NCBI GenBank assembly: GCA_963790785.1
Contig: CAWBPP010000007.1
Span: 61,537-125,536 of the forward strand
Direction of reading: 5' to 3'
Source: Candidatus Polarisedimenticolaceae bacterium
Lineage (GTDB): Bacteria > Acidobacteriota > Polarisedimenticolia > Polarisedimenticolales > Polarisedimenticolaceae
Length of the DNA: 64,000 nucleotides
Below are positions 2,906 to 45,006 of the stretch, one piece after another. Position numbers and translations under genes: made by a program. Within the stretch, counting starts at the first letter, position 1; each line of letters begins with the position of its first letter. The notes below the pieces were generated by a model. It was given only the letters and a program-made list of their open reading frames with translations. It searched no databases and was not told where the DNA came from.

Positions 2906-3400
2906 ATGGTCGACGGCGAGGACCATCACGTCGACCCCCGCTCGGTGCACGTCATCCGGATCATTGCCATCCCGGTGATCCTTGCCGCAGCGTTATTGCC
3001 CCTGGGGTTTCTTACCCTGGGCTGGGCTTTGGACGGGATCCCGACCCGCGTTTACCTTCCCCTCCTCGTTGCCTTGCTGGTCCTCGTCAGCCTGGCCCTG
3101 ATCATCGCCTTCCGTTTCCCCGCCGCTCGACACCGTCACCTGCGCTACCGGGTGGACCCGGACGGTCTGTGTATCCGGCGCGGCGTGTTCTGGCGCAAGA
3201 CGGTCTGGATCCCCATCACCCGGGTGCAGCACACCGACGTCTCCCAGGGACCGCTGCAACGAAGGTACGAGCTGGCCACGCTGACCGTGCACACCGCCGG
3301 CACCGTGGGGGCGTCGATACCGCTCCCCGGTCTCGAGCACGGCATCGCCCTCAGGCTGTCCGATCATCTGCAGCCGAACCGGGAACACGATGCAGGCTGA
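2906..3400 (+). CDS. YdbS-like membrane protein with bacterial PH (bPH_2) domain
   Basis: 164 aa. Two N-terminal TM helices followed by the bPH_2 core (RYRVDPDGLCIRRGVFWRKTVWIPITRVQHTDVSQGPLQRRYELATLTV). 11-nt overlap with the next gene, as in the Bacillus ydbS-ydbT pair. Confidence 0.7.
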   Translation: MVDGEDHHVDPRSVHVIRIIAIPVILAAALLPLGFLTLGWALDGIPTRVYLPLLVALLVLVSLALIIAFRFPAARHRHLRYRVDPDGLCIRRGVFWRKTVWIPITRVQHTDVSQGPLQRRYELATLTVHTAGTVGASIPLPGLEHGIALRLSDHLQPNREHDAG

Positions 3401-5025
3401 GGCTCGCCGGCTGAATCGCTGGTCCTGGATTTTTATCACTGCAGGGACGATCCGGGCGTTGATCGTACCGATGATCGCGGCGATCGTCGCCAGCGGCGGG
3501 GTACTGCTGTGGCGACCCGAGCTGCTGTTGCTCGTCATCGTGCCTTCGGGCATCTACGCGTTCATCCGGCAACGGGTTTATAACTACCGCTTTACCGACG
3601 GTGAGTTGATCGTGCGCGACGGGCTGCTGTTCCGCAACCTCCGGAAGATCCCCTATGAGCGGATCCACAACGTCGCCCTGGTCCGCAATCCGCTGCATCG
3701 GGTGTTGGGCGTCGCCACGGTGCGGATCGAGACCGCCGCCGGTGGGAAACCCGAAGCTCTCCTGAAGCGTTCTGTCCATCGACGCCGCGGAGGAGCTGCG
3801 TCGGATCACCCTCGACGAAACGCGCCAGGCGGTGGCCGATAGTGACGAAGAGAAGGCCGGGGATGAACCGCTGGTCAAGACGCCGGATCTGGAGCTGGCC
3901 CGCCTCGGCCTGATAAGCAACCGCGGCCTGGTGGTGGTTGCGGCGGTGGCCGGCGTTCTGACCCAGGCGGACTGGTGGCAGAACCTGCTTGAAGAAACGG
4001 ACTGGCTGCGCTTCTACGAATACGTGCGGGACCATGGTCCCGGCTGGATGCGCTGGCTGCTGGAATCCGGTTCCATCACCGCCAAGCTGCTGGTGGGACT
4101 GGCGGTGGTCCTGCTGTTTCTCGGACTGCTCCGGTTACTGTCCATCGCCTGGTACCTGGTCCGCTACAGGGGGTTCACACTGCAGAGGAAAAACGACGAC
4201 CTGCAGGCGGAGTACGGTCTGCTGACCCGCATCCAGTCGGTGATTCCGATCCACCGCATCCAGCTGGTGACGGTCTCGGCGACCTTGCTGCACCGCTGGT
4301 TCCACCGCGAATCCATCGAGGTCGAGACAGCCGGCGCCTCCGAGGAAGGTTCGGACCTGACCCAACAGCTGGCGGCCTCGGGTGTCAAGCTCACCCGCCA
4401 GTGGCTGGCGCCCATCGTTGCCAGCGAACGTTCCGCCGGGCTGATCCGGCAGATCATGCCGGAGATCGACCTGGATGCGGTGGCCTGGAGACCGATGGAA
4501 GCTCGGGCGGTGCGTCGAATCGTCCGGAGGTTTGCGGTGATCCTGGTGCCGGTGGGCCTGGTGGTGACGGCAGTGCTGACCTTCGCTCCGATCCCGGTAC
4601 ACGGTCTGCACGGCCTGTGGCTGCCGGGCCTGGGACTACCGTTGGTCTGGTTGATCGCCCGCCGCTGGGTGCACAGCGCCGGCTGGGCGCTGACCGATGA
4701 TGCGATTCTCTTCCGCAGCGGCTGGCCGGGACGCAGCACCAGCATGGTGCGTTTCGTGAACATGCAATCCGTCTTGATGCGGCAGTCACCGTTCGATCGG
4801 CGACACGGCATGGCCAGGCTGGTGGTGGACACGGCGGGCGCGAGCAGCATCGGCCACCGGATTGAAATCCCGTATCTCGATGCAGAGGTCGTCGCAAAGA
4901 CGCTGCGCCTGCCTCTACGCCGAGAGCTGCGCCACCGAGTTCCCCTGGTAGCAAAAGGCTTCCCACGGTCGGTGAGGAAAAACCGGACCCAGTGCGGACC
5001 GGCGTGTTCCAGGAAGACCTCATAG
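3390..5025 (+). CDS. YdbT-like membrane protein with repeated bPH_2 domains; frame break near 3762-3768 (likely 1-nt homopolymer indel)
   Basis: ORFs 3390..3842 and 3832..5025 are consecutive parts of one protein. Deleting one A of 'ctgaagcg' (3763-3766) joins ...GGKPEALL to SVLSIDAAEELRRITLDETRQAVADSDEEKAG... Confidence 0.65.
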
Positions 5026-10950: not shown

Positions 10951-11523
10951 GTGGAGGCCTATATGGGGAGACATATGCAGCTCATCGCTCTTCTCGTCGC
11001 CGTTCTGGCGATCGACCCGATCCATGCCGGCGCCGATCGGTCCGCCTCGATGAAGACTGTGGCCGAGGTCGATCTTGAGCGGTACGTCGGCCGCTGGTAT
11101 GAAATCTCGCGCTTGCCGAACCGTTTCCAGAAAGGTTGTGCCGGCAACGTCACCGCCGAGTACGCCGTTCGTGACGACGGTCGCATCGACGTCGTCAACC
11201 GCTGCAGGACGACCGCTGGAGAGGAGATGAAGGCGGTGGGTGTCGCCCGGATCGTTGACGCAACGACCTGCGCGAAGCTCAAGGTGCGCTTTGCGCCCGC
11301 GTTCCTCTCGTTCCTCCCGATGGTCTGGGGCGACTACTGGATCCTTGATCTGGCGCCGGACTACCGCTACGTCGTCGTGGGCGAGCCGTCCCGCAGGTAT
11401 CTTTGGGTTCTGGCCCGCGAGCCGACGCTGGACGACGCGACCTACCGGGGCATTCTCGAACGGATCGAGGCGCAGGGATACGATCCGAACGACCTGGTCC
11501 GAACCGCGCACGACAACCTGTAG
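10951..11523 (+). CDS. blc: Bacterial lipocalin Blc
   Basis: Signal peptide, then the lipocalin signature DLERYVGRWYEISRLPNRFQKGC. C-terminus GYDPNDLVRTAHDNL. Exact start ambiguous (GTG 10951 / ATG 10963 / ATG 10975). Confidence 0.85.
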   Translation: MEAYMGRHMQLIALLVAVLAIDPIHAGADRSASMKTVAEVDLERYVGRWYEISRLPNRFQKGCAGNVTAEYAVRDDGRIDVVNRCRTTAGEEMKAVGVARIVDATTCAKLKVRFAPAFLSFLPMVWGDYWILDLAPDYRYVVVGEPSRRYLWVLAREPTLDDATYRGILERIEAQGYDPNDLVRTAHDNL

Positions 11524-11539: not shown

Positions 11540-12028
11540 ATGGATCGCACCGGCAGAGGAGTAGTCAAGAAGATGAAATCCGAATGGACCGAAGTCGCAG
11601 CGGAGTGGTGTGGTGAACAGGCTTTCACCGGCAGGAACGAATCCGGCGGAACCGTTGCGATGGGCACTGTGGAGGAGGCACAAGCCTGCATTGCGCCCAT
11701 GGAGATGCTGCTGCTCGGGCTGGCCGGCTGCACCGGAGTCGACGTAGTCCTCATCCTTCGGAAAATGCGCCAGCCTCTCGCAAGAGTGCGTGTCGAGGTG
11801 CGGGCGAAACGGGCGGACAGCCATCCCAGGGTTTACACGGAGATCGAAATTACCTACCTGCTCTCCGGAGAGGAACTGAGCAAGCAGGCGATCGAAAAGG
11901 CAATCAAACTGTCGGAAGAGAAATACTGCTCAGCCAGCGCCATGTTGGAGATGACGGCGAAGATCCGTTCATCGTATCGCCTGGTCTCTGAAAGTGACGA
12001 CACCAAGGGGACGGCACTTCACTCGTAG
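11540..12028 (+). CDS. OsmC/Ohr-family protein (copy 1)
   Basis: PMEMLLLGLAGCTGVDVVLIL...EEKYCSASAML, the OsmC fold with conserved Cys pair. About 90% nt identical to 28917..29393 by eye. Confidence 0.8.
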   Translation: MDRTGRGVVKKMKSEWTEVAAEWCGEQAFTGRNESGGTVAMGTVEEAQACIAPMEMLLLGLAGCTGVDVVLILRKMRQPLARVRVEVRAKRADSHPRVYTEIEITYLLSGEELSKQAIEKAIKLSEEKYCSASAMLEMTAKIRSSYRLVSESDDTKGTALHS

Positions 12029-13561: not shown

Positions 13562-14608
13562 ATGCTTGTCCGCTATGAGGCAGTGACTTTGAATCCGATG
13601 AAATTGCGCCAACTTAGTACCGTTTTAAACTGCCTTATATGGACCTTGCTCCCCTTGATTATTGGTCTGGTAGTTACCGGTTTCGCCATGGGACCGATCT
13701 TCAAGATCCTGCCGCACGACCTGATGCGCGTCAATACCATCCTGCGTGCCCTGGACAACGATAATCACGAACCACAGGGAGTGCTTTTCGGCAATAGCGT
13801 TGCCATGAACGGATTCGACACTCGGCGTCTCGGTGAATTACTTTCTGATGGAGGTGAGATACTAAACCTGAGTTCAACCGGGCAAACGCTTCCCGAGAGT
13901 CTTTTGTATTACCAGGAACTCCCTTCTTCCGTCACACGGATCATCCAGGTCGTCATGCCGATGACACTGGAGAAGCAACAAAAACTCAGAGAAGATACAT
14001 ATAACGCCTTCTATTTTTATGGATACCGCCCAGAAAGTGCGATGTCGGAGATGATACGGGGAAGTGCCGGTGAGGCTGCGTATGAACTGTTGAACCGCTC
14101 TAATATATGGCATCGCTTCCACGGTCGGTGGGTGCTCCGACAATGGATCGATACCGGGGTCAGGAGTTTCCTGCGAACTGACCTGAACCTCGGTCGAGCA
14201 AGGAATGATCTTTATTATCCCGCTCCTTACACCAGGAGAATCCCGCCCCAGAAAACTGCCAGGCTGCTTGAGCTTTGGAAGGAGCCCCGTGAGGATGAAC
14301 GACTCCGGGTGTCGCCTTCCGCACGCAATACACTCCGGATGATGGCGGATTATGCCGCCCGTACCGACCGGGAATTCTACCTGGTGGTGGCGCCGATGCA
14401 CCCGGAACTGCGGGAACACTTCGGCGAGAGATTCTTCCGGGATATCGGTGAATTGCGCAGGTACCTCGGGTTGGTTTCCAGCGACGGCATAATCGATGCA
14501 ACGGCGTTACTGCAGGAGAGCCAGTTCATCGATCACGCCCACCCCACGGCCGAGGGGGCCAGGCTCCTGGAGGCGATGGTCGCTTCCTCAATCGAGGATG
14601 GCGCCTGA
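13562..14608 (+). CDS. Membrane-anchored partner protein of MBOAT acyltransferase (SGNH/DltD-AlgJ-like, tentative)
   Basis: N-terminal TM helix, GVLFGNSVAMNGFD block resembling SGNH block I. Immediately upstream of, and 1-nt overlapping, the MBOAT gene. Lower GC than surroundings. Confidence 0.4.
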   Translation: MLVRYEAVTLNPMKLRQLSTVLNCLIWTLLPLIIGLVVTGFAMGPIFKILPHDLMRVNTILRALDNDNHEPQGVLFGNSVAMNGFDTRRLGELLSDGGEILNLSSTGQTLPESLLYYQELPSSVTRIIQVVMPMTLEKQQKLREDTYNAFYFYGYRPESAMSEMIRGSAGEAAYELLNRSNIWHRFHGRWVLRQWIDTGVRSFLRTDLNLGRARNDLYYPAPYTRRIPPQKTARLLELWKEPREDERLRVSPSARNTLRMMADYAARTDREFYLVVAPMHPELREHFGERFFRDIGELRRYLGLVSSDGIIDATALLQESQFIDHAHPTAEGARLLEAMVASSIEDGA

Positions 14609-16048
14609 TGCTGTTCTATTCTCCGGAGTTCCTGGTATTCTCCCTGGCGCTTCTCGCCTTGCTGGGGCTTATCCACCGCCAGGCGCCAAGAAAAGTTCTT
14701 CTGCTGGTAAGTAGCTACATCTTTTACATGTGGTGGAATCCCGCCTTCATCCTGTTGATCATATTTTCGACTGTAGTCGATTACCTGGTCGGACGCAGGA
14801 TGGCGGTCACCGATCACACGGGGAAAAGAAGGCTGTTGCTGGTGACCAGCCTGGTCGCCAATCTGGGCCTGCTCGGTACCTTCAAGTACGCGGGGTTCTT
14901 TCAGGAAAATCTCCTGGCCGCTCTTAGGCTTCTCGGCACCGAACCTGGCTGGACTTCGTTGCATATCGTTCTTCCAGTAGGAATCTCCTTCTACACTTTC
15001 CAGACCATGAGTTACACCATCGATCTCTACCGGCGGGAGATCGGTGTCTGTCGTTCGCCTCTCGACTTCGCACTGTTTGTGGCGTTCTTTCCACAACTGG
15101 TGGCCGGTCCGATCGTCCGCGCCCGTGATTTTCTTCCTCAACTACTCGAACCAATCAAATTGTATGTGGATCGCAAGACACTCCTCCTGATTCTCAGGGG
15201 ATTGGCCAAGAAGGTCCTTATCGCCGACAACATCGCAGGATTCGCCGATGTCGTGTTCGAGAACCCGGGCAGTTATCCGAGCACGGTTATCTGGTTTGGC
15301 ACCATCTGCTTCACAATACAGGTCTACTGCGACTTCTCGGGGTACTCCGACATAGCCATCGGTGTGGCGCGGATCCTCGGTTTTCGCCTGCCCCTTAACT
15401 TCAACCGGCCCTACTTCGCAAGCAACCCGAACGAATTCTGGAAGAGATGGCACATAAGTCTTTCTACATGGCTGCGGGATTACCTGTACATTCCCCTGGG
15501 CGGGAACAGGGGCGGTACCGTCAAGTTGTACCGCAATCTGATGCTGACAATGCTTCTGGGCGGGTTATGGCACGGTGCCAATTGGAACTACATCCTGTGG
15601 GGTTTTCACCACGGCCTACTGCTCGTAGGGCACCGACTGTGGCGTGGTTTCAGAGTGAAATATTTCGGTGAGAGTAAAGGTTCTCCCGGTCACTTTACGA
15701 CAGTAATCTCCATTCTGTTCACGCAGTATTGCATAATGCTTACCATGATCACCTTCCGAGTCTCCGACCTGAGTCAGACGCTGCCGACGCTTAAGAAGTT
15801 CATCTTCTTCGACTTCGATTTCGGATTGACGAGCATAGGGATCGGGTCGATGTCGCTGTTCAGCACGCATCGTCCTGGTGGCGTTATTCCTGGTCCTGCA
15901 TGTGAACGCCAAGTTCAAAGGTGATTTCGAAACAAGAATGTCCAGGTTGCCGAACCTGGTCTACGCGGTGCCGTTGGTCATAATCGGGATAGCCTTTTTT
16001 ATCCTGTGGCCGATGCAGGAGGCGCCGTTCATATACTTCCAGTTCTGA
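14608..16048 (+). CDS. MBOAT-family O-acyltransferase (AlgI/DltB-like); frame break near 15871-15876
   Basis: MBOAT motifs (FWKRWHISLSTWLRDYLYIPLGG, conserved His in LWHGANWN). The called ORF ends at 15924, but removing one C from tcgtCCtgg restores ...STHRLVALFLVLHVNAKF...PFIYFQF* ending at 16048, a typical AlgI C-terminus. Confidence 0.75.
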
Positions 16049-16065
16049 GTCAAACGCCACTGCTT

Positions 16066-16195
16066 AATGGGCCCGGAAGGACTCCCTCCTCCGCTAACGC
16101 TTCGGAGGGCAGGCGACGCCGAAGGCGCGCGGAGCAACCTGGGACCGACGGATTATGAGTCCGCTTCAGCAGTGCGTGGTTGCAAGGTTTTTAAG
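16066..16195 (-). repeat. Degenerate tRNA-Met 3' fragment carrying a ~51-nt insertion, plus partial U-repeat copy B
   Basis: aacctgggaccgacggattatgagtccg (16136-16163) is identical to the tRNA's internal 3' portion. 16069-16105 resembles 24655-24704. gagtccg...ggttgcaaggttttt follows at 16157. Confidence 0.55.
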
Positions 16196-16340
16196 GAGCA
16201 AGGTTCGCACCGGGCCAAACCGCTGATCTCCAAAGATCGTCGGAATCTTCATCCGCCATGCTCCTGTAGCAGCCGACAGATAGCAACATGGACCCTACAA
16301 GTGTGATCGTCACGAAACGAAGAAAGAACTTCCTTGGGGA

Positions 16341-17117
16341 TCAGCTTTGTGGCGGCCAAGGCAAAAAGGCGCTGGTCCTGCGAGCGTACGCGCCGTATTC
16401 CGGTTTCGTCTCCGACAAGCTTTTCTCCAGCAGGCTGACTCCCGAGACCTTGAGCAGCAGGAAGGTCATCAGGATCGGGCTGGCGATCGTCCATAGCGAG
16501 CCCGGTGCCGAGAGCGCAATCAGGAATAAGCCCCACCAGACAACGGTGTCTCCGAAATAGTTCGGATGCCTGGTGTAGCGCCAGAGCCCGCTCTGCATGA
16601 CTCGGCCGCTGTTGCCCGGGTCGTTCTTGAACCGGGCCAGCTGCAGGTCTCCTACCGTCTCGAACAGGAAGCCGATGGCGAACAGGACGGTGCCGGCCGC
16701 GTCGAGCCAGGTTAATTCGTCAGGTTGGACCGCGTGCTGCGCAACGAGAAGGGGCGCGGAGACGAACCAGAGTATCGATGCCTGGAGCAAAAAGATGGCG
16801 AACAGGCTCCAGAGGGCGAAGTTCCGGGAATGTCTCTTGCGCATGTCCTGATAGCGATAGTCTTCGCCGCGGCCGATGCTTCGCACCAGGATGTGAAGCG
16901 ACAACCTCAGCCCCCAGAGGCTGACCAAGGCGACCGTGAGAACCTTGCGTACGGTCATGGCATCGGAAGTTAAGAAATAGAACCAGGCCACCACCACGAA
17001 GCCGAGTCCCCAGAATATATCGATGATGCCGGCATCACGCCGGACCAGGCTGAGCAGCCAGACCAGCGTCATCATGCAGAGGGCGAGAAGCAGGGCGATG
17101 GCAAATGTCGTCAGCAT
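16341..17117 (-). CDS. DUF1295 family polytopic membrane protein (methyltransferase/5-alpha-reductase-like fold)
   Basis: 258 aa, ~7 TM helices, C-terminal RHPNYFGD motif. Last gene of the co-directional operon that starts at 21430. Confidence 0.6.
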   Translation of the reverse strand: MLTTFAIALLLALCMMTLVWLLSLVRRDAGIIDIFWGLGFVVVAWFYFLTSDAMTVRKVLTVALVSLWGLRLSLHILVRSIGRGEDYRYQDMRKRHSRNFALWSLFAIFLLQASILWFVSAPLLVAQHAVQPDELTWLDAAGTVLFAIGFLFETVGDLQLARFKNDPGNSGRVMQSGLWRYTRHPNYFGDTVVWWGLFLIALSAPGSLWTIASPILMTFLLLKVSGVSLLEKSLSETKPEYGAYARRTSAFLPWPPQS

Positions 17118-17171
17118 GGCAGGTCAGGCTGCCTTCCTTAACAGCAGTTTCTCGATCAGCGTGACTCGCAT

Positions 17172-18182
17172 TCACCGGCTCCTTTCGAACAGGTAATGGC
17201 CGACCATCCACTCCTCGCCGCCGCCGTAGGCGAATAGTTCCTCGCAGGCCATGAAGAACATACGCCAACGACGGATCCAGCGACTGGCCCGGGACGCCCC
17301 GTAGACCGAGCGGAATATTTCCAGGATGTGGTCATGCCGGGTGTCGAACAGATCCAGCCAAGCCCGTAGGGTTTTGGCGTAGTGGTTGCCGTTGACCTGC
17401 CAGCGATGCGTGACAGAGAGATCTTCCGTAAAGCGATCGAACAGATCCCAAGAGGGCATCATGCCGCCGGTGAAGAAATATCTCGCCATCCAGTCGTCAT
17501 CGCCGTCGATCTCGAAGAAATAGGGGATCGCTCGATGGCAGAAGATGTGAACAAACAGCTTGCCCTCCGGGCTCAGCCAGGAAGCGATTTTTTTAAGCAG
17601 CAGCCGATAGTTCCGCATGTGCTCGATCATCTCCACCGAGACGACGCGATCGAAGCGCTGGTCGGTGTCGAATTCGTTAATGTCCGCCGTCAGGACCTCT
17701 ATGCCGGCGAGTCCCCGCCTCTCGGCCTCCGCCTCGATGAACTCTTTCTGGGAGGATGAGTTCGATATGGCGGTTATCCTGCAATCCCTGTACATCTCGG
17801 CGACCCAGAGCGTCGTGGAGCCCCAGCCGCAGCCGAGATCGAGAACCTTCATGCCGTTTTCGATCCCGGCCCGCCTGCAGGTCAGCCGGAGCATCGACTC
17901 TTCGGCTGCGTCGAGATCCTGGACGCCCTGTTCCCAGAGGCAGCTGCTGTACTTGAGCCTCGGTCCCAGGACCCGCTTGAAGAAACCGGCCGGGAGCTCG
18001 TAGTGTTGCGCATTGGCCAGGTCGGTCCCGAGCGCGAGTGGGCTCTCGAGCATCTTCGGAACCAGGTCGGCCGCGACACCGCTCTCCTTCCGCAGACGTC
18101 CACGCAGCAGTCCGCGGATCCCCAAGCGGACCATGAAGTCGGGGAGGAGGCCCCGTTCGGCGGTCTCGGCACTCCAGTTCAT
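17172..18182 (-). CDS. Cyclopropane-fatty-acyl-phospholipid synthase family SAM-dependent methyltransferase (paralog 1)
   Basis: SAM motif VLDLGCGWGS; CMAS-family C-terminus HYAKTLRAW...FMACEELFAYGG. Confidence 0.85.
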   Translation of the reverse strand: MNWSAETAERGLLPDFMVRLGIRGLLRGRLRKESGVAADLVPKMLESPLALGTDLANAQHYELPAGFFKRVLGPRLKYSSCLWEQGVQDLDAAEESMLRLTCRRAGIENGMKVLDLGCGWGSTTLWVAEMYRDCRITAISNSSSQKEFIEAEAERRGLAGIEVLTADINEFDTDQRFDRVVSVEMIEHMRNYRLLLKKIASWLSPEGKLFVHIFCHRAIPYFFEIDGDDDWMARYFFTGGMMPSWDLFDRFTEDLSVTHRWQVNGNHYAKTLRAWLDLFDTRHDHILEIFRSVYGASRASRWIRRWRMFFMACEELFAYGGGEEWMVGHYLFERSR

Positions 18183-18183
18183 T

Positions 18184-19386
18184 TCAGATCCTCAACGGCT
18201 TGGCCAGCAGCAGCTGGGCATTGTCGACCGTGCGTTCGAGAAAACCGCCTTCGCAGTAGCAGAGGTAGAACTCCCACATCCTGATGAAGCGGTCGTCGTA
18301 CCCGAGCCGGCGTATCCGATCCAGCCTGTCGAAGAAATTTCGGCGCCAGTGCCGGAGTGTAGTGGCGTAATGGGGGCCGATCTCCTGCAGGTCGGCCACC
18401 TTCATGTCGGTCACCCGTCCGAGCGAATCGCGCATTGCGGAGACCGAGGGCAGGAAGCCGCCCGGGAATATATAACGCTGAATGAAATCGACCGAGCGCC
18501 GGTAGCTTTCGTACAGGCGGTCGGCTATTACGATCGCCTGCAGCAGCATCACTCCGTCCGGTTCCAGCAGCTCGCTGCAGGTCCGGAAATAGTGATCGAG
18601 ATAGCGCTCACCCACCGCCTCGATCATTTCTATGGATACCACCTTCCTGAAGCGCCGGTTCAGGCGCTTAGGCAGATCGCGGTAATCCTCGAGCAGGACG
18701 GTGATCCTGTTCGCCAGACCGGCCTGGCGGATCCGCTCCATCGCCATCTTGCGCTGCTCGCCGGAGATGGTCGTTGTTGTGACCCGGCAGCCGAAGTTGC
18801 GTGCTGCATGAATCGCAAGGCCGCCCCAGCCGGTACCGATCTCCAGTAGCTCGTCCTCCGGGCAAAGTTCCAGCTTGCGACAGACCAGATCGATTTTGTG
18901 ACGGGAAGCCTCTTCCAGAGGGCTGCTTTCACACGGAAAGATGGCGCAGGAGTACATCATCGCAGGATCGAGGAATGTTTCGAACAGTTCGTTGCCGAGA
19001 TCGTAGTGGCGGGCGATGTTTCTGCGGCTTCCGAGGCGGGTGTTGCTCCTGCTCCAGTGCAGGAATTTCCGCAATGGTGCGGTCAGCCGCGCCGTGCCCT
19101 TCTCCATGCCCTGGTTGAGCTCCTGGTTGCAGGCGATTATGCGGACCACGCTGGTGAGATCATCGCTGCTCCAGAGGCCGTCCATGTAGGCCTCCCCCGC
19201 TCCGACGGAACCTCCCAGAACGACGTCGGCGTAAAAGGCCGGGTCATGCACCTTGATGGTTGCGGTCAGCGGGCAGCGGTCGGTGGGAGAGCCGAAGGAT
19301 TCTCTGCGGCCGCCATCCTCCAGCACGATGCGACCGTGTTGCATTGCTCTCAAGCCACGGCGAAACAGGCTGTGCATCGGGTTCAT
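18184..19386 (-). CDS. Cyclopropane-fatty-acyl-phospholipid synthase family methyltransferase (paralog 2; UfaM/Cfa-like)
   Basis: [25 protein letters not shown] motif and ...[10 protein letters not shown]...[16 protein letters not shown] tail. Start ATG 19386-19384 overlaps the upstream gene's stop (ATGA). The ORF-track extension to 19932 is off-frame text. Confidence 0.85.
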
Positions 19387-20162
19387 GATCCGCTCCCGGC
19401 GGTGGTCCCCGGATGCGGCTGGAATGGCACTTTCTTGAGCCAGAGCCTGACCGCCTGATAGTAGATCGCCAGGAAGACCTGCAGCGTCATGAGGGGATAA
19501 AGGAAGAGAACGCTTGCCAGGGAGCCGCCGTTGATCTCTCTCCGTTCCAGGTTGAGGGTGGCGTCGAAATGCTTTTGGCCGGTCCGCCGGTTCTCGATGT
19601 GTGCCGTCAGCCGCTTCCCCGGCGGCGTCAGCGCGAAGGAATACTCGAAATCCATTTCCATGAATGGTGAAACATGGAAGCTTTTGGGCCGGCGGCAACG
19701 GAGGCTCGCGCCTTCCTTCCGGGGCTCGAAATCGGCCAGGACGTAGCAGTATCGTTCGTTCCAGGGGGTGTTGTGCACCTCGGCCACGATCGCTTCCACC
19801 CTCAAGCCGGAGCGATCGAAGCAGTAGAAGAAACTGACCGGGTTGATGCAGATACCGAAGTACCTGAGGTGGGTGAGAACCCTGATCGGGCCCTCCGGCC
19901 GCTTGCCGGTCCGCTCTTCCACCAGATTGCACACCGTGTTCTGGAGGGAAACGGCGGGATCGCCGAAATGGTCTTTTCTACGGAACCAGGCCAGCGCCGG
20001 CCGGCGCGCCGACCAGAACCACCTCTTCCTGAACAGCTCACCCAGCTCTTCAAGATCGAGGTACATCATGAAAAGCGGATAACGGAAGGCATGCCGGACC
20101 GGTGCGATGCGGTGGTGCCGTACGTGGCCTCGGTAGATGGCGCTGTCTCTCTCGCGCATCAT
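19383..20162 (-). CDS. DUF1365 family protein (UfaO-like)
   Basis: 259 aa, [31 protein letters not shown]-terminus characteristic of DUF1365. Start/stop coupled to both flanking genes. Confidence 0.8.
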
Positions 20163-21430
20163 TCCAGCCCGCAGCCGAAATGGCGGCCGACCCTGAGTGC
20201 GCTGACGACCCCATCCTCGTGAAAACCGTTGCGCCAGTAGGCACCGCAGTAATGGGTCCGGTTGACACCGCTGATCTCGCCATGCCTCTCCTGCGCCTCC
20301 AGCGATTCCGGGGTGAAGAGCGGATGCGAGTACTCCATCCGGCGGATCACCTGCGATGGATCGACTGCGCCGTTCTCGTTCAGGCTGACGCAGACGGGAC
20401 TTTCCGTGCCGAGGTTCTGCAGCCGGGACATGTCGTAGGTCAATGTGACCCGGTCCGCTTTCATGGCCGGTATCCTGTAGTTCCAGCTGGCCCGCGCCCT
20501 GCGATTGACGGGGAGCATGAACCCGTCCGTGTGCAGCACCGCGTCATTCTTCTGATACGGGATGACCGCAAGAAGCCGCCTCTCGCTCTCGGTCGGATCG
20601 GCCAGGAGCTTCAGCGCCTGGTCACTGTGCGTACCGATGACGACTTCGTCATACAGCTCCGGTGCCCCATCGGCAGGAATGAGCTCGACGCCGCCGGGCA
20701 GCCGCCTGACCGAGCGGACCGGGGTCGAGGTCCGGATGCGCTCCCGGAAAGATCGGACCAGCGGCTCGACATATCGTTGCGAGCCGCCGCTGATCACGCG
20801 CCATTGCAGGTGGCCGATCATTCCGAGCAAGCCGTGGTTCCGGAAGAAGCGGATGAAGAAATGGGCCGGAAAGTCCAGCGTCCGCTCCGGTCCGGCCGAC
20901 CAGATCGCGGCAGCCATCGGCACGATGTAATACTCGACGAATCCTCTGCCGTAGCGCTGCGCCTGGAGGAACTCGCCCAGGGTGGGGGCCATGACGCCCT
21001 GATCCAGCAGAATGGGCGCTTCCTTGTTGAACCGGACGATGTCCCGCAGCATCCGGTAGAAGGCGGGGCGAACCAGGTTGCGCCTCTGGGCGAACAGTGT
21101 GTTGAGGGAGGTTCCGCAGTACTCCAGGCCGGTCCGTTCGCAAGAGACGCCGAAGCTCATACTGGTCGTCTCGCTGTCGACGCCCAGTTGATCGAGCAGC
21201 TTGACGAAATTGGGGTAGGTGACCTCGTTGTAGACCACAAAACCGGTGTCCACATCCAGCTCCCGACCCTCTAGCTCGATGCCGGTCGTGCTGGCGTGGC
21301 CACCGACCCGGTCGGCCGCCTCGAACAGCGTGATGTCATGCGCCTGTTGGAGCAGATAGGCAGAGACAAGCCCTGAGATTCCTCCCCCGATGATCGCTAT
21401 GTTGGAACGTTTGCCGCGCCCGCGTCCCAT
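20159..21430 (-). CDS. FAD-dependent amine-oxidase-like oxidoreductase (UfaD-like desaturase family)
   Basis: [25 protein letters not shown] Rossmann GxGxxG at the chosen start (ATG 21430). amino_oxidase-like length. Confidence 0.8.
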
Positions 21431-21482
21431 TTCTGCTCCAAATGATAGAAATATATAGTGCTTGTTCGTTTCTATGCCTGCG

Positions 21483-21511
21483 ATGATAAAGTATGGGGCG
21501 CATCGTGTCAA
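21483..21511 (-). promoter_or_regulatory. Putative sigma70-type promoter of the lipid-modification operon (TTGACA-N17-TATCAT)
   Basis: On the minus strand: TTGACA at 21511-21506, TATCAT at 21488-21483, 17-nt spacer, ~45 nt upstream of the start codon. A TAGAAA-N17-TTTCTA inverted repeat lies at ~21443-21472. Confidence 0.3.
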
Positions 21512-21633
21512 TGTTTTGTATACTACATGTTATGGACAAATGTCACTTTCCGGCGAACGGCCGACTTCATAGGGTTTATTCGATTATGCAGGAACTCTCT
21601 TTAAACAGGAGCATAACGTTCCGGCCGGCGCGG

Positions 21634-22740
21634 ATGTTCGTTCTCCTTGCGCATCTCCTCATGGTGCTGGGGGCGGCAGGAGGACAGGTCCGCGCCGCGG
21701 ATATCACCGTCAACCTCGATCAGGCGCCACAGGGAGGAGAAGTCGTCTTGCTGCTGTTCGACTCGGCCAATGCGTTCGGCGACTTTCGGGACCCTGTGAG
21801 GTCCGAGCCGTTTGCGGCCGACGGCCGGACGAGCTTCACGCTGGGTGAGGTCCCGGCCGGGGACTACGCACTGCTGGTGCATCACGACGCCAACGGCAAC
21901 GGCATCATCGACAAGAACTTCATCGGTATCCCGACCGAGCCGATCGCGTTTTCCAACGGATACCGCCCGAAAGGGCCACCGAGTTATCAGCGCGCGCGGT
22001 TCACGGTCGGTCCGACCGAAGACGTGGAGATCGATCTGGAGCTTTTTCAGGCACTGGGCAGGCGGGGACAGGTCGGTGTGGGGCTTGGAGCGATCGGTCG
22101 CAGCAGCCCGTACCGGGACTATAGTGGCGGCGTTTATCAGGTGATCCCGGCGATCACCTACAACGGCGACCGCCTCCAGCTTTTCGGCCCCAACCTCCAG
22201 GTCGGTATCGTGGGCAGCGGCATGCTGCGGCTGGCCGGGACCCTCTCCTACCGGATCGGGGTGTACGAGGAGTCGGACAGCCCCTTTCTCGCCGGCTTGG
22301 GTGACCGCAAGAGCGCGATCATGGTCGGCCTTGCGATGGAGGCCGAACTGCCGCAAGGCATCGATCTTTCCCTGGGATACGAACACGACATCTTCAACCG
22401 GATCGGCGGAGGCGGCGCCAAGCTGAGCCTCGACAAGGCGTTCTCCCTGGGGATCTTCAGGATCACACCGGAAGTCGGAGTGAACTGGCTATCCTCCGAA
22501 CTCTCGAACCACGACTTCGGCATCCCGCCGGCAGCAGCAACCCTTGAGCGACCCGCTTACGAACTGGACGATACCGTCAGTTTCGAGGTCGGCCTGTCCT
22601 CGCTCATCGAGATCTCTCGCGATTGGCTCATTGTCCTGAACCTCGCGGTGGAACAATTCGACGATGAGGTCAAGAACAGCCCGATCATGGTCGATAATCA
22701 GGTCGTCAAGGGTTTCTGCGGTCTGAACTACGTCTTCTGA
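21634..22740 (+). CDS. Fusion of DUF2141 domain and MipA/OmpV-family outer-membrane protein
   Basis: Signal peptide MFVLLAHLLMVLGAAGGQVRA, then DUF2141-like AGDYALLVHHDANGNGIIDKNFIGIPTEPIAFSNG, then ~250 aa resembling MipA/OmpV. Alternative start ATG 21586. Confidence 0.55.
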   Translation: MFVLLAHLLMVLGAAGGQVRAADITVNLDQAPQGGEVVLLLFDSANAFGDFRDPVRSEPFAADGRTSFTLGEVPAGDYALLVHHDANGNGIIDKNFIGIPTEPIAFSNGYRPKGPPSYQRARFTVGPTEDVEIDLELFQALGRRGQVGVGLGAIGRSSPYRDYSGGVYQVIPAITYNGDRLQLFGPNLQVGIVGSGMLRLAGTLSYRIGVYEESDSPFLAGLGDRKSAIMVGLAMEAELPQGIDLSLGYEHDIFNRIGGGGAKLSLDKAFSLGIFRITPEVGVNWLSSELSNHDFGIPPAAATLERPAYELDDTVSFEVGLSSLIEISRDWLIVLNLAVEQFDDEVKNSPIMVDNQVVKGFCGLNYVF

Positions 22741-22749
22741 TGTCTCCTG

Positions 22750-22888
22750 AACCGACGGAGAAGAGATGAAGGCGGCGGGTGTCGCCCTGATCGTCGACGA
22801 GGCGACTTATCGGGGCATTATTCAGCGGATCACGGCCCAGGGCTACGATCCTAACGACCTGGTCCGAACCGTTCAGGACAACCGCTAG
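22750..22888 (+). pseudogene. Remnant of a blc lipocalin paralog (5'-truncated, internal deletion)
   Basis: Encodes EEMKAAGVALIVDE|ATYRGIIQRITAQGYDPNDLVRTVQDNR*. This matches blc residues ...EEMKAVGVARIVD and ATYRGILERIEAQGYDPNDLVRTAHDNL* with the middle ~55 aa missing. Confidence 0.7.
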
Positions 22889-23301
22889 CTTCCGATCCCC
22901 AGCCAACGGCCGATGCCATACCCGGCGCTGGAGACGAGCGCCGACAGGCAGCTGCCCCAGATCATGTCCACCACGACCACCACCACCGGGAAATTCTTGA
23001 ACAGCGCGAGGCAGGTCAGGTCGAAAGCGGCGTAAGCCACAAACCCCATGAAGGCTCCGAGGGTTATGGCTTGCCACAACGATCCGGCCGACAAGCCGGG
23101 CTGAACCGCGAACACCAGTAGTCCGGCGATGAAGATGAGATAGAAAAGGATCGCCGGCACCCATCGCACTTGCCCGGCAAGCAGGTGACCGAGATGACGA
23201 TTGTAAAATTCGACGGCGACGACGCCAAGCCAGACGAGGTCGATCACGAAGAAAACGATCGCCGTCAACAGATAGAGCTTCAGGAAGTCGGTCACGCCCA
23301 T
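22885..23301 (-). CDS. DUF2177-like small membrane protein
   Basis: 138 aa, four hydrophobic helices. Assignment from memory of the family, not computed. Confidence 0.5.
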   Translation of the reverse strand: MGVTDFLKLYLLTAIVFFVIDLVWLGVVAVEFYNRHLGHLLAGQVRWVPAILFYLIFIAGLLVFAVQPGLSAGSLWQAITLGAFMGFVAYAAFDLTCLALFKNFPVVVVVVDMIWGSCLSALVSSAGYGIGRWLGIGS

Positions 23302-23451: not shown

Positions 23452-24480
23452 TCATGTCGTCGCGTCCTCCAAAAACCGTCGCGCCAGCTCACGGCCCGAC
23501 CGCCAGGCGGCCTGCATGCCCCCGCCGGGAGAGAAGCTTTCGCCGGCGAGACCCAACCGTCTCCCGCCGGACAGAGCGATCATCCTCGGGCCGGCCAGTT
23601 CCCCCCCGCTTGCGACCCGCGCAAAGCGCCAGCGATGGGTTTGAACCGTCTCCGGCTTTGCAGCCCAGGAACCGGCCACCTTGCTCACTTCCCCGAGCAT
23701 GGCGGCGGACCATTCGGTCTCGGGCCGCTCCCACTGCCCGTGCGACCAGGCCGGCAACGCCTGCAGCACCAGGACGGTGCGATCGGTTTGCTCACGCTTG
23801 CTGGAGTCGTGACTGATTCCTTGGATGACATCCGAATCCGCGGGGAACGACATATCCCAGTCGGGCGCCGGACCGTTCTTCGGGTAGAGCGCGATCACGG
23901 TCAGCGAGGAAACGAAGCCGGTCTCGCGGAGCAGCAAGCGCAGGGACTCGAACTCGCTGGACTCGTCCCGGCAGGAATTCAGCAACTCCAGGGCCTGAGG
24001 CGTGGGGATGCTCAGCACGAGATCGCGGGCCGTCAATTCCTGCCCCACCTCGTTCACGATTCGCCAACGTTCGGCCGTGGAGCCGACGGAGACCACACGC
24101 GAGTTCAGTCGCACGTCGAGACCGGCGGCAAGCCACTTCGGAAACACCGTCAAGCCCTTCGTGTAGGTTAGACGCCAATCCCCGTCGCGAAAGGCGCTCG
24201 GCTGAAAGGGAGTTCCCGTCCCGCGGATGCGTCGGGGCCATCCGGCGATGATGTCGTCACCGGCGGCGGATTCCAGCGATGCCAACAACGCCGCGTCACT
24301 GCCGTGGAAGAAGGTCAGCCCATGATCGACCACGCAACCATCTACACGGCGTGTTGCACAGCGCCCACCGACCCCGCGGCTCTTCTCGAGCACGATGACG
24401 CGCAGGCCCGCCTCGACAAGTTGCCGGGCGCAGGTCAGACCGGCGATACCTGCGCCCACGACGAGAACATCGGCATACAT
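23452..24480 (-). CDS. Renalase-like NAD(P)/FAD-dependent oxidoreductase (COG3380 type)
   Basis: [21 protein letters not shown]...[11 protein letters not shown] dinucleotide-binding N-terminus. 342 aa. Confidence 0.7.
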
Positions 24481-24917: not shown

Positions 24918-25505
24918 GTGAAACTGCAGGAGAGCTGGCTGATCTGGCGGCTGCAAAGTGGGGACCGGGAGGCATCCCGGGAGCTGATCCGGACCCACCA
25001 TCAGGCCGTCTACAGCTATCTCCGGCGGTTGTGCTCCGATGCGGCGCTGGCGGAGGACCTGACCCAGGAGACCTACACCCGGGCCTGGTCCGCCGTGAGT
25101 GGGCTGCGGCGAGTGGTTTCGCTGCGAGCCTGGCTGCTCACGATCGCAAGAAACCAGTTTCTCCAGCGCGTGCGCAGGCGCAGAGTGCAGGAGACCCCGA
25201 TTGACTACGCTCCCGATCCTATCGATCCGGCGCCAAGCGCTCTGGCGGCCGCGGCGGACGCAGAGCGCGACGCCCGGCTCCACGACGCGGTGGACCGGCT
25301 CGAGTCCGGATTGCGTGAGACCGTGGCACTGCACTACTTCCAGGAGCTGAGCCTCCGGGAGGTCGGTTCTGTGCTCGGACTGCCCACGGGGACCGTCAAG
25401 TCGAGGTTGAACCGCGCCCTCCGTTCCCTGCGATGTGTGCTGAATCAAAAGGAGGCGAATCATGAAAGACCGACGGCTCGAAAAGAAACTGCGGGCGGCA
25501 TCTGA
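24918..25505 (+). CDS. ECF (group 4) sigma-70 factor
   Basis: Region 2 (RELIRTHHQAVYSYLRRL...DLTQETY) and region 4 (YFQELSLREVGSVLGLPTGTVKSRL). GTG start assumed. The track ORF 24654..25505 has a non-coding-looking extension. Confidence 0.85.
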   Translation: MKLQESWLIWRLQSGDREASRELIRTHHQAVYSYLRRLCSDAALAEDLTQETYTRAWSAVSGLRRVVSLRAWLLTIARNQFLQRVRRRRVQETPIDYAPDPIDPAPSALAAAADAERDARLHDAVDRLESGLRETVALHYFQELSLREVGSVLGLPTGTVKSRLNRALRSLRCVLNQKEANHERPTARKETAGGI

Positions 25506-26637
25506 TCGACCCGCACCGGCGGATCTTCAGCGGCGCCTCGATGCGGCGATCCCAGAATCCTTCGGACGCCCGAGGACCGTGCGGATCGCGGAGGGAATCT
25601 TTGCCATGACCAAATGGGGAATGATCGTTGCGGCGCCCACGGTGCTCGCTATGTGGCTGGTGGGCAGCATCATCTTGGGTCCGACTGCCCCCGTCGCCTT
25701 CGCCGGGGTTCTGGAACCGGTAGTCGCAGGAACGTCCGATGCGGCCCTGGTGCACTACATCCTTCACAGGCTGACCCGCGAGGGAGAGGACTTCTCCTTC
25801 GTTGAACTCGACGGCCCGGGTTTGACCGTGGAAGTGTGGGTCGAAGCGCCCCAACCCACAGGCGAGCCCGCGCGCTACCGCATGGGCAAATCCGACCGCG
25901 TCATCGCCTACGACGGGCAGCAGACGGTGCTGCATATGACGAAAATGAACGATGCTTACCGCTACGAGGGCGTCAACACGCGCGGCGCCGCACTATGGCC
26001 GGCGGGCTGGATCCGCGAGCTGCGCGAGCATCCCGGAGACGACGTGAAACAGCTGCTCTATGAAGAGGCGGAAGGCGAGGCTCGCCTCGTCTACAGCGAA
26101 TCAGGTGTGGACACCTCGCCGCTGCCAAAGGCGTTTCTCGGAGACTACGACCGGGAAACCGAGCTGCGGTGGTCACTGGACACCCATGCCATGACCGGCC
26201 TGAAGACCTGGGTCCTCATCGGCGGAAAGCGCGTGCTTTACTCCGAGCTGCTCGCTATCGAGTATCTGCCTCCGGCAAAACCGGAATCGTTCCAAATCGT
26301 GCTGCCGGACGATGTGCGCTTCGGCGGCGTGAAGGAGGGCACCGCCGAGGAAAACGCTTTGGGACCGGTGGATGTGGCCCGGGGCCTGTTCGAGGCGGCC
26401 CGGTGGAAGGACCAGCACTTCCTGGAGACCTACGTCCCGTCGCCGGCCACCGTTGACTGGGCGATGCAGGCACCGGAATTCGAGATCCTCTACATCGGCG
26501 AGCCGTTCCGGACCGGAGGCTACGCCGGTGTGTACGTGCCCTACAAGATCCGGATCGATGGAAAGATCAAGGAACGGCAGCTCGCGCTGCGAAACGACAA
26601 TCCTGAGCGTCGCTGGGTGTTCGACGGCGGGATCTGA
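25462..26637 (+). CDS. Membrane-anchored anti-sigma factor (single TM; no ZAS/ChrR motif)
   Basis: MKDRRLEKKLRAASDRPAPADLQRRL N-terminus typical of anti-sigma N-domains. TM MIVAAPTVLAMWLVGSIILG. Overlaps the sigma gene. Confidence 0.55.
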   Translation: MKDRRLEKKLRAASDRPAPADLQRRLDAAIPESFGRPRTVRIAEGIFAMTKWGMIVAAPTVLAMWLVGSIILGPTAPVAFAGVLEPVVAGTSDAALVHYILHRLTREGEDFSFVELDGPGLTVEVWVEAPQPTGEPARYRMGKSDRVIAYDGQQTVLHMTKMNDAYRYEGVNTRGAALWPAGWIRELREHPGDDVKQLLYEEAEGEARLVYSESGVDTSPLPKAFLGDYDRETELRWSLDTHAMTGLKTWVLIGGKRVLYSELLAIEYLPPAKPESFQIVLPDDVRFGGVKEGTAEENALGPVDVARGLFEAARWKDQHFLETYVPSPATVDWAMQAPEFEILYIGEPFRTGGYAGVYVPYKIRIDGKIKERQLALRNDNPERRWVFDGGI

Positions 26638-27045: not shown

Positions 27046-28110
27046 TTACTTTTGCCTGTTCTTCATGACTGATTTGATCATCTTCCCAAAACTCCTGTCC
27101 TGCTTTCTCTTTTCCAAATATGACATTTGGTTGAATTCCGATTCTTTTTTCATCTTCAGGTAATTTTGATAGCGTTGTTCGGACAGATCCCCTGTATTTA
27201 TAGCCGCCAGTATTTCACAGCCTTTTTCATTGGTGTGAGAACAGTCACTGAACCTGCATCTCTGGGCATAGTCCAGTATTTCCGAGAAAGTTTCATCCAG
27301 GCCGTCATCTGCCGACATGGTTCCAAGCTCTCTCATTCCCGGAGTATCTATTATCATTGCCCCGCTTTCCAACCGAACCAGGTGACGGCTTGCTGTAGTA
27401 TGTCGGCCTTTGCTTTGAATTTTACTTACAGGCTGCGTTTCAAACTTTTCCTCGCCCAATATGCAATTGAGCAAGGTAGTCTTGCCAACACCAGATGATC
27501 CCAACAGGCAATATGTAGAGCCACTCTGCAATGACCCGATAATCGAATCGATATTCTCTCGGTTCAGATTGCTGAACTCCATCACGGCGGTATGAGGAGC
27601 GATATCCAGCACACTTTTTTTAATGTCCGCAACTTCTTCCTTGGAAATCAGGTCGCTCTTACTCAGCAGGACCATCGGTTCGATGCCACTTTCATGGACC
27701 ATAACCAGATAGCGCTCCAATCTTCGCAGGTTGAAATTGTCATTCAAAGATTGAAGAATGAAGGCAACGTCAATGTTTGCGGCTATCAACTGGAAATCAA
27801 CCAGCTTGCCGGCTGTTTTTCTTTTTAGAAGCGTTTTTCTGGGGAAGACACCATAGATAATTGCGTGGGTGTCATCGTCATAATAATCTGCATATACCCA
27901 GTCACCGGCAGTGGGAAGTTCACTGGCAGACGCGATACAATAAAGAAGGTTTCCAGACAATTCGGCAAATATCTCCTTCGTTCCTTGCGTCACGGTGTAG
28001 CTGTCTTTATGCACAGAAACTACCCGTGCAACTCCATGAGCGGCAATCTGTTCATCGTCCGCTCGACTCTTGAACCAGTCGCTGTACCCTATGCTTTCCA
28101 AATTGCTCAT
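27046..28110 (-). CDS. rsgA: Ribosome small-subunit-dependent GTPase RsgA/YjeQ, in a markedly AT-rich segment
   Basis: OB-fold N-terminus, permuted GTPase (SKSDL, GSSGVGKTTLLN, DTPG), C-terminal Zn finger CRFSDCSHTNEKGC. Local GC is far below the window norm (23 G+C in 60 nt at 27061-27120). Confidence 0.85.
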   Translation of the reverse strand: MSNLESIGYSDWFKSRADDEQIAAHGVARVVSVHKDSYTVTQGTKEIFAELSGNLLYCIASASELPTAGDWVYADYYDDDTHAIIYGVFPRKTLLKRKTAGKLVDFQLIAANIDVAFILQSLNDNFNLRRLERYLVMVHESGIEPMVLLSKSDLISKEEVADIKKSVLDIAPHTAVMEFSNLNRENIDSIIGSLQSGSTYCLLGSSGVGKTTLLNCILGEEKFETQPVSKIQSKGRHTTASRHLVRLESGAMIIDTPGMRELGTMSADDGLDETFSEILDYAQRCRFSDCSHTNEKGCEILAAINTGDLSEQRYQNYLKMKKESEFNQMSYLEKRKQDRSFGKMIKSVMKNRQK

Positions 28111-31325: not shown

Positions 31326-31402
31326 TGGTGGGCCCACCAGGACTCGAACCTGGGACCGACGGATTATGAGTCCGTTGCTCTAACCAACTGAGCTATAGGC
31401 CC
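31326..31402 (-). tRNA. tRNA-Met (anticodon CAT; tRNA-Ile2/lysidine type not excluded)
   Basis: Reverse complement GGGCCTATAGCTCAGTTGGTTAGAGCAACGGACTCATAATCCGTCGGTCCCAGGTTCGAGTCCTGGTGGGCCCACCA folds as a cloverleaf (7-bp acceptor, T-arm CCAGG/TTCGAGT/CCTGG, anticodon loop CTCATAA, encoded CCA). Confidence 0.85.
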
Positions 31403-43227: not shown

Positions 43228-44964
<1,737 letters not shown>

Positions 44965-45006
44965 AAGAGGCTATCCCTCTCGACCTTGCGCGCTCATGCA
45001 GTGCGA

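Follow-up and report, generated by a model that had tools for sequence, protein, structure and literature searches.

Furan fatty acids, which attract interest in nutrition and industry, are potent scavengers of radicals and of singlet oxygen. To our knowledge, the bacterial pathway that forms them has been worked out in two alphaproteobacteria only. The present analysis concerns a putative furan fatty acid operon of five genes in a Candidatus Polarisedimenticolaceae bacterium (Acidobacteriota), which was found in a stretch of 64,000 nucleotides (assembly GCA_963790785.1, contig CAWBPP010000007.1, positions 61,537 to 125,536). This whole stretch is referred to as the window, and all positions given below without another locus name are positions of the window.

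In Rhodobacter sphaeroides, RSP1091 encodes UfaD, an FAD/NAD-binding, amine-oxidase-like desaturase, and RSP1090 encodes UfaO, a DUF1365 protein of 250 amino acids (aa) that inserts oxygen derived from O2 and so forms the furan ring (Lemke 2020, PMC7380195). The next gene, RSP1089, encodes a CMAS protein of about 400 aa that is not required for furan fatty acids; the CMAS-family methylase UfaM is the product of RSP2144 and is unlinked to the ufaD-ufaO operon (PMC7380195). In Rhodopseudomonas palustris the genes are adjacent, in the order RPA2571 (ufaD), RPA2570 (ufaO) and RPA2569 (ufaM), and these three are sufficient for the formation of the furan fatty acid 9M5-FuFA (PMC7380195). A distant CMAS paralogue, FufM (RPA0924, 26% identical to UfaM), converts 9M5-FuFA to the dimethyl 9D5-FuFA; in vitro the enzyme performs this C-methylation on its own, and 18:1 is no substrate for it (PMC7380195). 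In Chlamydomonas, singlet oxygen co-induces members of the CFA1, coclaurine N-methyltransferase (CNMT)-like CFA2, DUF1365, DUF1295 and DUF2177 families (PMC4067076).

The five-gene operon and its predicted pathway

The five genes, here called g1 to g5, all lie on the minus strand from 21430 to 16341. They form a chromosomal operon in which the domain assignments are strong for every member:

g1, 21430..20159, minus strand: 423 aa, putative UfaD-like FAD-dependent fatty-acyl desaturase of the amine-oxidase fold, with a GGAG ribosome-binding site
g2, 20162..19383, minus strand: 259 aa, UfaO-like DUF1365 protein, ATGA overlap with g1
g3, 19386..18184, minus strand: 400 aa, long CMAS-family S-adenosylmethionine (SAM) methylase, ATGA overlap with g2, positional equivalent of R. 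palustris UfaM
g4, 18182..17172, minus strand: 336 aa, short CMAS-family methylase of the CNMT-like / FufM-like branch, starting 1 nt after g3
g5, 17117..16341, minus strand: 258 aa, DUF1295 polytopic membrane protein of the steroid-5-alpha-reductase / PEMT / ICMT superfamily

The operon probably converts unsaturated acyl chains of membrane phospholipids to methylated furan fatty acids, through a UfaM/UfaD/UfaO-type pathway with a further, FufM-like methylase. With all reaction steps of g1 to g4 taken over from characterised homologues, g3 would transfer a methyl group from SAM to a cis-monounsaturated phospholipid acyl chain (cis-vaccenate), with a methyl-branched trans-olefin as the product. 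The FAD enzyme g1 would desaturate this olefin to a conjugated methyl-diene, which the DUF1365 protein g2 would close to a furan ring using O2, yielding a furan fatty acid with one methyl group (9M5-FuFA type). The short methylase g4 would then place a second methyl group on the ring (9D5-FuFA type), with g5 as its putative membrane partner, which might serve as an anchor or as a subunit that binds NADPH or SAM. In the membrane, the products would scavenge singlet oxygen or serve as signals for it.

This assignment is based on domains, gene order and short peptide matches. In a Pfam scan, g1 matched Amino_oxidase (PF01593, 4e-22) together with NAD_binding_8 (8e-14), an N-terminal FAD/NAD-binding fold like that of amine oxidases and phytoene desaturases, and g2 matched DUF1365 (PF07103, 2e-82) over profile positions 1-233 of 235, which indicates a full-length domain. 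Both g3 (PF02353, 2e-83) and g4 (2e-42) matched CMAS, and g5 matched DUF1295 (PF06966, 1e-76), Steroid_dh (2e-9) and PEMT (1e-7). For all five genes the scan agreed with the families named in an earlier reading of this DNA made from its letters alone (hereafter the sequence-only reading), which had described them as co-directional. The account of UfaD, UfaO and UfaM given there likewise agrees with PMC7380195, with g1 to g3 in the R. palustris order. Among solved structures, the closest to g1 is LkcE (1e-43, full length) and g5 has a weak PDB match to SRD5A2; no solved relative of g2 was found in this search. We know of no catalytic residues described for UfaO.

The ATGA start/stop overlaps that had been noted are real (g1/g2 at 20162-20159 and g2/g3 at 19386-19383), and g1 to g4 are translationally coupled. 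The gaps of 1-2 nt claimed alongside them hold for g3/g4, which are separated by 1 nt; the g4/g5 spacer measures 54 nt. The G+C content at third codon positions is 0.79-0.80 in all five frames, which supports their coding nature. The module edge formerly placed at 21511 had to be moved, since g1 starts at ATG 21430: this start has the GGAG site, and the resulting 423 aa equal the orthologue in locus L021 end to end, at 78% identity. Position 21511 as the start of g1 was rejected, being merely the furthest TTG of the open frame. Nothing was found by Rfam in the operon and its leader.

The arrangement recurs elsewhere. Eleven other loci were inspected besides the window, and the same gene order was found in independent genomes at 65-78% protein identity, which argues that it did not arise by chance. 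The order oxidase, DUF1365, long CMAS, short CMAS, DUF1295 is present in L002 and L023, and also in L021 and on one JGI contig, both of which have an additional DUF1475 gene ahead of DUF1295, while L019 carries the first four genes. All five families occur in other orders in L003, on a second JGI contig, in L022 and in the cultured Ralstonia wenshanensis p56D2, where their companions include MerR-B12 or MerR, lipocalin, fatty-acid desaturase, DUF2878, SDR and photolyase genes. Across the loci the module often adjoins photolyase, lipocalin, SDR, MerR-B12 or extracytoplasmic function (ECF) sigma genes, and lipocalin genes lie within the equivalent clusters of L003, L024 and L025. A DUF1365 gene directly follows a UfaD-type oxidase gene in the window, in RSP1091-1090, in RPA2571-2570 and in nine other loci. 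The lineage of the window is sparsely sampled, its best matches being 65-83% identical and all from metagenomes or metagenome-assembled genomes. Homologues of g3 and g4 gave more than 8000 matches per search, and at E<=1e-30 the matches of g4 fall into 696 clusters of 50% identity.

The conjugative megaplasmid pRL12 of Rhizobium johnstonii 3841 (L025, 618853-633838) carries the module in part. This locus contains ChrR/sigma-E, DUF2177, a g1-like FAD oxidoreductase (44% identical), coupled DUF1295 and short CMAS genes, a lipocalin, TspO, FolE and an SDR gene.

The comparison with the characterised UfaD, UfaM and FufM proteins used short peptides taken from published primers (Lemke 2020) rather than full-length sequences. 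For UfaD, the RSP1091 peptide (D)MSFG, located at about residue 96, matches g1 at 91-94, and the RPA2571 peptide FHEDGL, near the C-terminus, matches FHEDGV at g1 403-408; the positions are consistent, and 11 residues only are spanned. The UfaM peptide REVDF (RPA2569) aligns with RSVDF at g3 297-301. The FufM peptides show that the protein begins with MSGLASL, has DEWGV at around residue 340 and ends in RLKPA, which gives a length of about 350 aa. Of these, DEWGV aligns with the C-terminal [DE]EWxV motif of the g4 family, represented in g4 by EEWMV at 323-327. These peptides match at the expected positions and are far too short for proof of orthology. Neither MSGLASL nor RLKPA, the FufM termini, was found in a search of 120 close homologues of g4 and 150 of its cluster representatives, and RPA0924 was not among these 270 proteins. 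In the genome-contig collection there were no matches to the RPA0923/0924 junction DNA rebuilt from primers (with wobble Ns) or to the RSP1090/1089 junction 26-mer, and the 13 matches of the fufM 5' 21-mer among metagenome contigs were all unrelated (7-codon frames or non-CMAS proteins).

The two methylases, the DUF1295 protein and their possible functions

The sequence-only reading had described g3 and g4 as tandem CFA-synthase paralogs. Their common CMAS family stands, but the two proteins are only 29% identical to each other, and against Escherichia coli Cfa they reach 38% (g3) and 28.5% (g4). They belong to different CMAS subfamilies, and g4 is not a Cfa duplicate. Both score below the 400-bit cut-off of the NCBIfam Cfa equivalog (g3 286.6 bits, g4 159.6 bits), and the canonical Cfa combination of this score with the five bicarbonate-site residues C139, E239, H266, I268 and Y317 is found in neither.

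At the position of E. coli Cfa H266, all 120 closest homologues of g3 have Gln. The H240 position is Ala in 119 of the 120, and C139 is Ser or Cys in 115 (75 Ser, 40 Cys). The residues E239, I268 and Y317 are retained in g3, as is the N-terminal lipid-binding region. The cyclopropane synthases of cotton, which are oxidase-CMAS fusions, also carry H266Q and C139S and make cyclopropane rings (PMC3132707). The use of H266Q in g3 as evidence against cyclopropanation was therefore rejected, since true plant cyclopropane synthases have it too. The H266Q and C139S/C substitutions of its family place g3 in an oxidase-associated CMAS clade, and its product is not readable from them.

The best solved relatives of g4 are plant coclaurine, pavine and tetrahydroprotoberberine N-methyltransferases. 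The match to the CNMT structure 6GKV reached 3e-77, with 42% identity over 294 residues, whereas that to E. coli Cfa gave merely 105 bits. The position of Cfa C139 is Ser in g4 and that of I268 is Phe. Residues E184, E187 and H188 of g4 correspond to E204, E207 and H208 in the active site of CNMT and do not vary among 36 family members; this conservation points to shared ancestry and mechanism, not to an alkaloid function. The predicted structure of g4 has a mean confidence (pLDDT) of 90. FufM is reported to share 37.9% identity with Arabidopsis At4g33110/LIME1 (PMC10940516), a gene whose annotation is putative coclaurine N-methyltransferase (PMC3388832). Since g4 is itself CNMT-like, the chain from g4 through CNMT and At4g33110 to FufM indirectly supports a FufM-like assignment of g4. 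The earlier suggestion of a FufM-like second methylase thus gains indirect support from the CNMT-like branch, the At4g33110 link and the [DE]EWxV motif.

Fusion proteins among the cluster representatives that match g4 connect these families further. DUF1295 is fused to the short CMAS in P0251, P0254, P0260 and P0351 (about 600 aa), the long CMAS to the short CMAS in P0264 and P0280, and amine oxidase to CMAS and short CMAS in P0274 and P0288; P0324, of 1840 aa, joins DUF1365, amine oxidase, CMAS and short CMAS. Single fusion cases may be gene-calling artefacts, and the DUF1295-methylase architecture occurs in four separate clusters. Together with the synteny, the fusions argue that the five genes of the window act in one pathway, with the DUF1295 protein working with the short methylase. 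The likeness of DUF1295 to steroid 5-alpha-reductase, PEMT and ICMT suggests that it could bind NADPH or SAM.

In the closest relatives a DUF1475 gene encoding 111 aa occupies the position between g4 and g5, where the window has the following feature:

17124..17171, minus strand: 15-codon open reading frame (ORF) MRVTLIEKLLLRKAA, DUF1475 gene remnant within the 54-nt g4/g5 spacer

The first five and the last ten codons of MRVTLIEKLLLRKAA align with both ends of the 111-aa DUF1475 gene of L021, leaving one clean in-frame gap of 288 nt. On this alignment the spacer ORF is the leftover of a DUF1475 gene after an in-frame 288-nt deletion. The relatives also have a convergent DUF2878 gene, of which neither a gene nor a remnant was found within the window. 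Directly downstream of g5, a patch of low GC (0.54-0.57) at 13562-15924 on the plus strand encodes a 348-aa protein without family match and an MBOAT acyltransferase; lying at the relatives' DUF2878 position, it may be an insertion.

Several observations weigh against furan fatty acid synthesis as the function of the operon. The H266Q and C139S/C substitutions of the g3 family are also those of plant enzymes that make cyclopropane rings; RSP1089, the operon-linked CMAS protein of R. sphaeroides, is dispensable for furan fatty acids; the DUF1475 and DUF2878 genes of close relatives are missing in the window; and the DUF1295 and short CMAS genes occur alone in L020 and as a pair without DUF1365 or long CMAS in the pRL12 locus. 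As RSP1089 is dispensable and UfaM is encoded elsewhere, position alone is no proof that g3 is of the UfaM type. The substitutions shared with the cotton fusions and the case of RSP1089 would fit an operon that makes cyclopropane or other non-furan acyl chains, in which g3 is a plant-type cyclopropane synthase and g1 and g2 process its product or are accessory. Such a function is improbable, however, given that a full-length gene of the UfaO type (DUF1365) is coupled between g1 and g3, and that the identically placed CMAS protein of R. palustris is UfaM, in a set of three genes that suffices for 9M5-FuFA. In addition, the operon-linked cfa of Pseudomonas syringae is the best match of RSP2144/UfaM, and g3 falls under the Cfa equivalog cut-off.

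The occurrence of DUF1295 and short CMAS genes without DUF1365 or long CMAS means that the substrate of the pair need not be a furan fatty acid. It agrees with the view that g4 and g5 make up a membrane enzyme of two components that is distinct from ufaDOM and only happens to lie beside it, g4 then being no furan dimethylase, as do the four cluster representatives in which both are fused, the resemblance of DUF1295 to steroid 5-alpha-reductase, PEMT and ICMT, and the amine-methylation residues of CNMT kept in g4 (E184, E187 and H188). Likewise, RPA0923, beside fufM in R. palustris, ends in RSATL, unlike the DUF1295 C-termini of the compared loci. Such an enzyme might combine a methylase with an NADPH reductase to give a saturated methyl-branched chain, as in sterol C24-methyltransferase/ERG4 or BfaB/BfaA, or it might be an N-methyltransferase acting on an amine-containing lipid. 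Yet FufM, the sole characterised bacterial enzyme linked to this branch, needs no partner to C-methylate its furan substrate and leaves 18:1 unchanged, the short CMAS is also fused to oxidase and CMAS and to DUF1365, oxidase and CMAS, and in most loci the pair lies inside the ufaDOM cluster, so that a separate g4/g5 enzyme appears unlikely. A related and still tentative idea, somewhat doubtful on present evidence, is that the CNMT-like short methylase and DUF1295 are obligate partners in a membrane enzyme with undescribed chemistry, since their genes are repeatedly adjacent, often translationally coupled and fused in several lineages. As the pair also occurs without a nearby UfaO or UfaM, it may make a lipid modification other than, or besides, furan dimethylation, possibly by methylation followed by NADPH-dependent reduction. 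If this is true, the product of the pair would be a new component of a singlet-oxygen lipid response conserved from bacteria to algae and plants.

Probable promoter, regulators and chromosomal setting

The region of about 155 nt upstream of g1 and the surrounding parts of the window contain the following features:

21483..21511, minus strand: sigma-70-type promoter-like site TTGACA-17 nt-TATCAT, 11/12 positions, the -10 ending 53 nt upstream of the g1 start
21515..21540, no strand assigned: imperfect 26-nt palindrome TTTGTATACTACATGTTATGGACAAA, abutting the upstream side of the -35, arms 75% complementary
22885-23301, minus strand: DUF2177 membrane protein
23452-24480, minus strand: 342-aa FAD oxidoreductase
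24919..26637, plus strand: ECF sigma factor (probable GTG start at 24919, end at 25505) and a 391-aa protein downstream
10951-11523, plus strand: Blc-type lipocalin
about 11690-12028, plus strand: OsmC-like protein after the lipocalin, domain at about 11690-11965

The lipocalin, OsmC, DUF2177, FAD oxidoreductase and ECF sigma genes are present as the sequence-only reading had listed them. Its association of the module with sigma-E/ChrR control was not supported. The ECF11 promoter consensus is TGATCC-N16-CGTA (PMC5507510), and upstream of g1 (21431-21600, minus strand) no match to it was found with up to 2 mismatches. Across the window, counts of this motif are at chance level (65 against 52 +/- 7). 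The TTGACA-17-TATCAT site is the sole one found in 16000-21800 and falls within the intergenic region upstream of g1, so that transcription probably starts at this sigma-70-type promoter (21511-21483) rather than at an ECF11 promoter. The palindrome TTTGTATACTACATGTTATGGACAAA could, speculatively, be an operator for a regulator. The only exact ECF11 consensus match in the window is TGATCCAGAACAGACGCCACACCGTA (1789-1814, minus strand), which lies antisense inside the long ORF 1570-3414 and has no obvious downstream gene; about 0.1 exact matches are expected by chance.

In the 391-aa protein whose gene follows that of the sigma factor, no ChrR, zf-HC2 or cupin domain was found and no Pfam or NCBIfam match even at E<=1, and the ChrR of pRL12 used as a query found nothing in the window. 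The ECF sigma factor is 31% identical to the ChrR-paired sigma-E of pRL12. By these comparisons the sigma factor is generic, and together with the 391-aa protein it does not make up a pair of the sigma-E/ChrR kind. In L021 (16888-18910), an ECF sigma gene is likewise followed by proteins without family match a few kb from the operon; the two sigma factors are 29% identical. Such ECF sigma genes and no-match proteins may represent a lineage-specific regulator pair that replaces sigma-E/ChrR. A tblastn search for a LitR/MerR-B12 regulator gave no match within the window. On pRL12, DUF2177 and FAD oxidoreductase genes adjoin the DUF1295 and short CMAS genes. Their counterparts in the window may share one regulon with the operon. 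Divergent from the operon, 21586-22740 on the plus strand encodes a signal-peptide protein in which DUF2141 is fused to a MipA/OmpV-type outer-membrane domain; this fusion was seen beside the operon in none of the related loci.

The operon had also been proposed to lie in a mosaic island. The genes for RpoD (578 aa) and DnaG primase (43228-46788, minus strand) are about 22 kb away, rsgA (27046-28110) and a tRNA-Met gene (31326-31402) are in the same window, and the GC content of the operon (0.59-0.61) equals the window mean. With core genes nearby and no deviation in GC, the island idea fails; the setting is a chromosomal core region with low-GC patches and no evident island.

Comparison with known systems

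The locus adds a further example to a widespread, partly characterised kind of gene cluster; it is not a new kind of system and would be expected by a specialist. Its value is that one operon of an uncultured lineage combines all the genes, that of the rarer FufM-type methylase among them. Such a five-gene operon with an apparently housekeeping-type promoter could be a convenient cassette with which to produce mono- and dimethyl furan fatty acids in other hosts. DUF1295, DUF2878 and DUF1475 travel with the pathway as accessory genes.

The closest described system is that of R. palustris CGA009, where RPA2571-RPA2570-RPA2569 has the same order and domain types as g1 to g3 (PMC7380195) and where the second methylase is similarly divergent from the first (FufM/UfaM 26%, g4/g3 29%). 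In R. palustris, however, fufM is at a separate locus after RPA0923, whereas the FufM-like gene of the window belongs to the same operon and is followed by DUF1295. The R. sphaeroides operon RSP1091-RSP1087, which like RSP2143-2144 belongs to the sigma-E/ChrR core regulon, shares with the window the order of UfaD, UfaO and a CMAS protein of about 400 aa, with lipocalin-type and oxidoreductase genes nearby. It differs in being divergent from rpoE-chrR and having an ECF11 promoter, while the window has neither ChrR nor TGATCC-N16-CGTA upstream and has a sigma-70-like site. Moreover, in R. sphaeroides UfaM is unlinked (RSP2143-2144) and RSP1089 is dispensable; FufM is absent, and DUF1295 is not among the operon genes described.

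In Ralstonia wenshanensis p56D2 (KOL96_07130-07165), all five families are in one cluster, the proteins being 30-47% identical to those of the window. Here the DUF1295 and short methylase genes have changed places; a MerR-family regulator and FolE come first in the cluster, and DUF2878, lipocalin and photolyase genes flank it. Similar clusters of other Burkholderiaceae are, like this one, generically annotated.

E. coli Cfa (PDB 6BQC) has the CMAS fold in common with g3. In g3, Gln replaces the bicarbonate ligand H266 and Ala replaces H240, and its gene, unlike that of Cfa, shares an operon with oxidase and DUF1365 genes. Plants and algae share the protein families, as seen in Arabidopsis UFAM1/UFAD1 (At3g23510), UFAO1 (At1g30130) and LIME1/FUFM1 (At4g33110) and in the SAK1 regulon of Chlamydomonas. 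The plant oxidase and CMAS form one fused polypeptide, whereas g1 and g3 of the window are separate genes. The cotton and Sterculia enzymes make cyclopropane rings, and furan products in Arabidopsis are hypothesised only.

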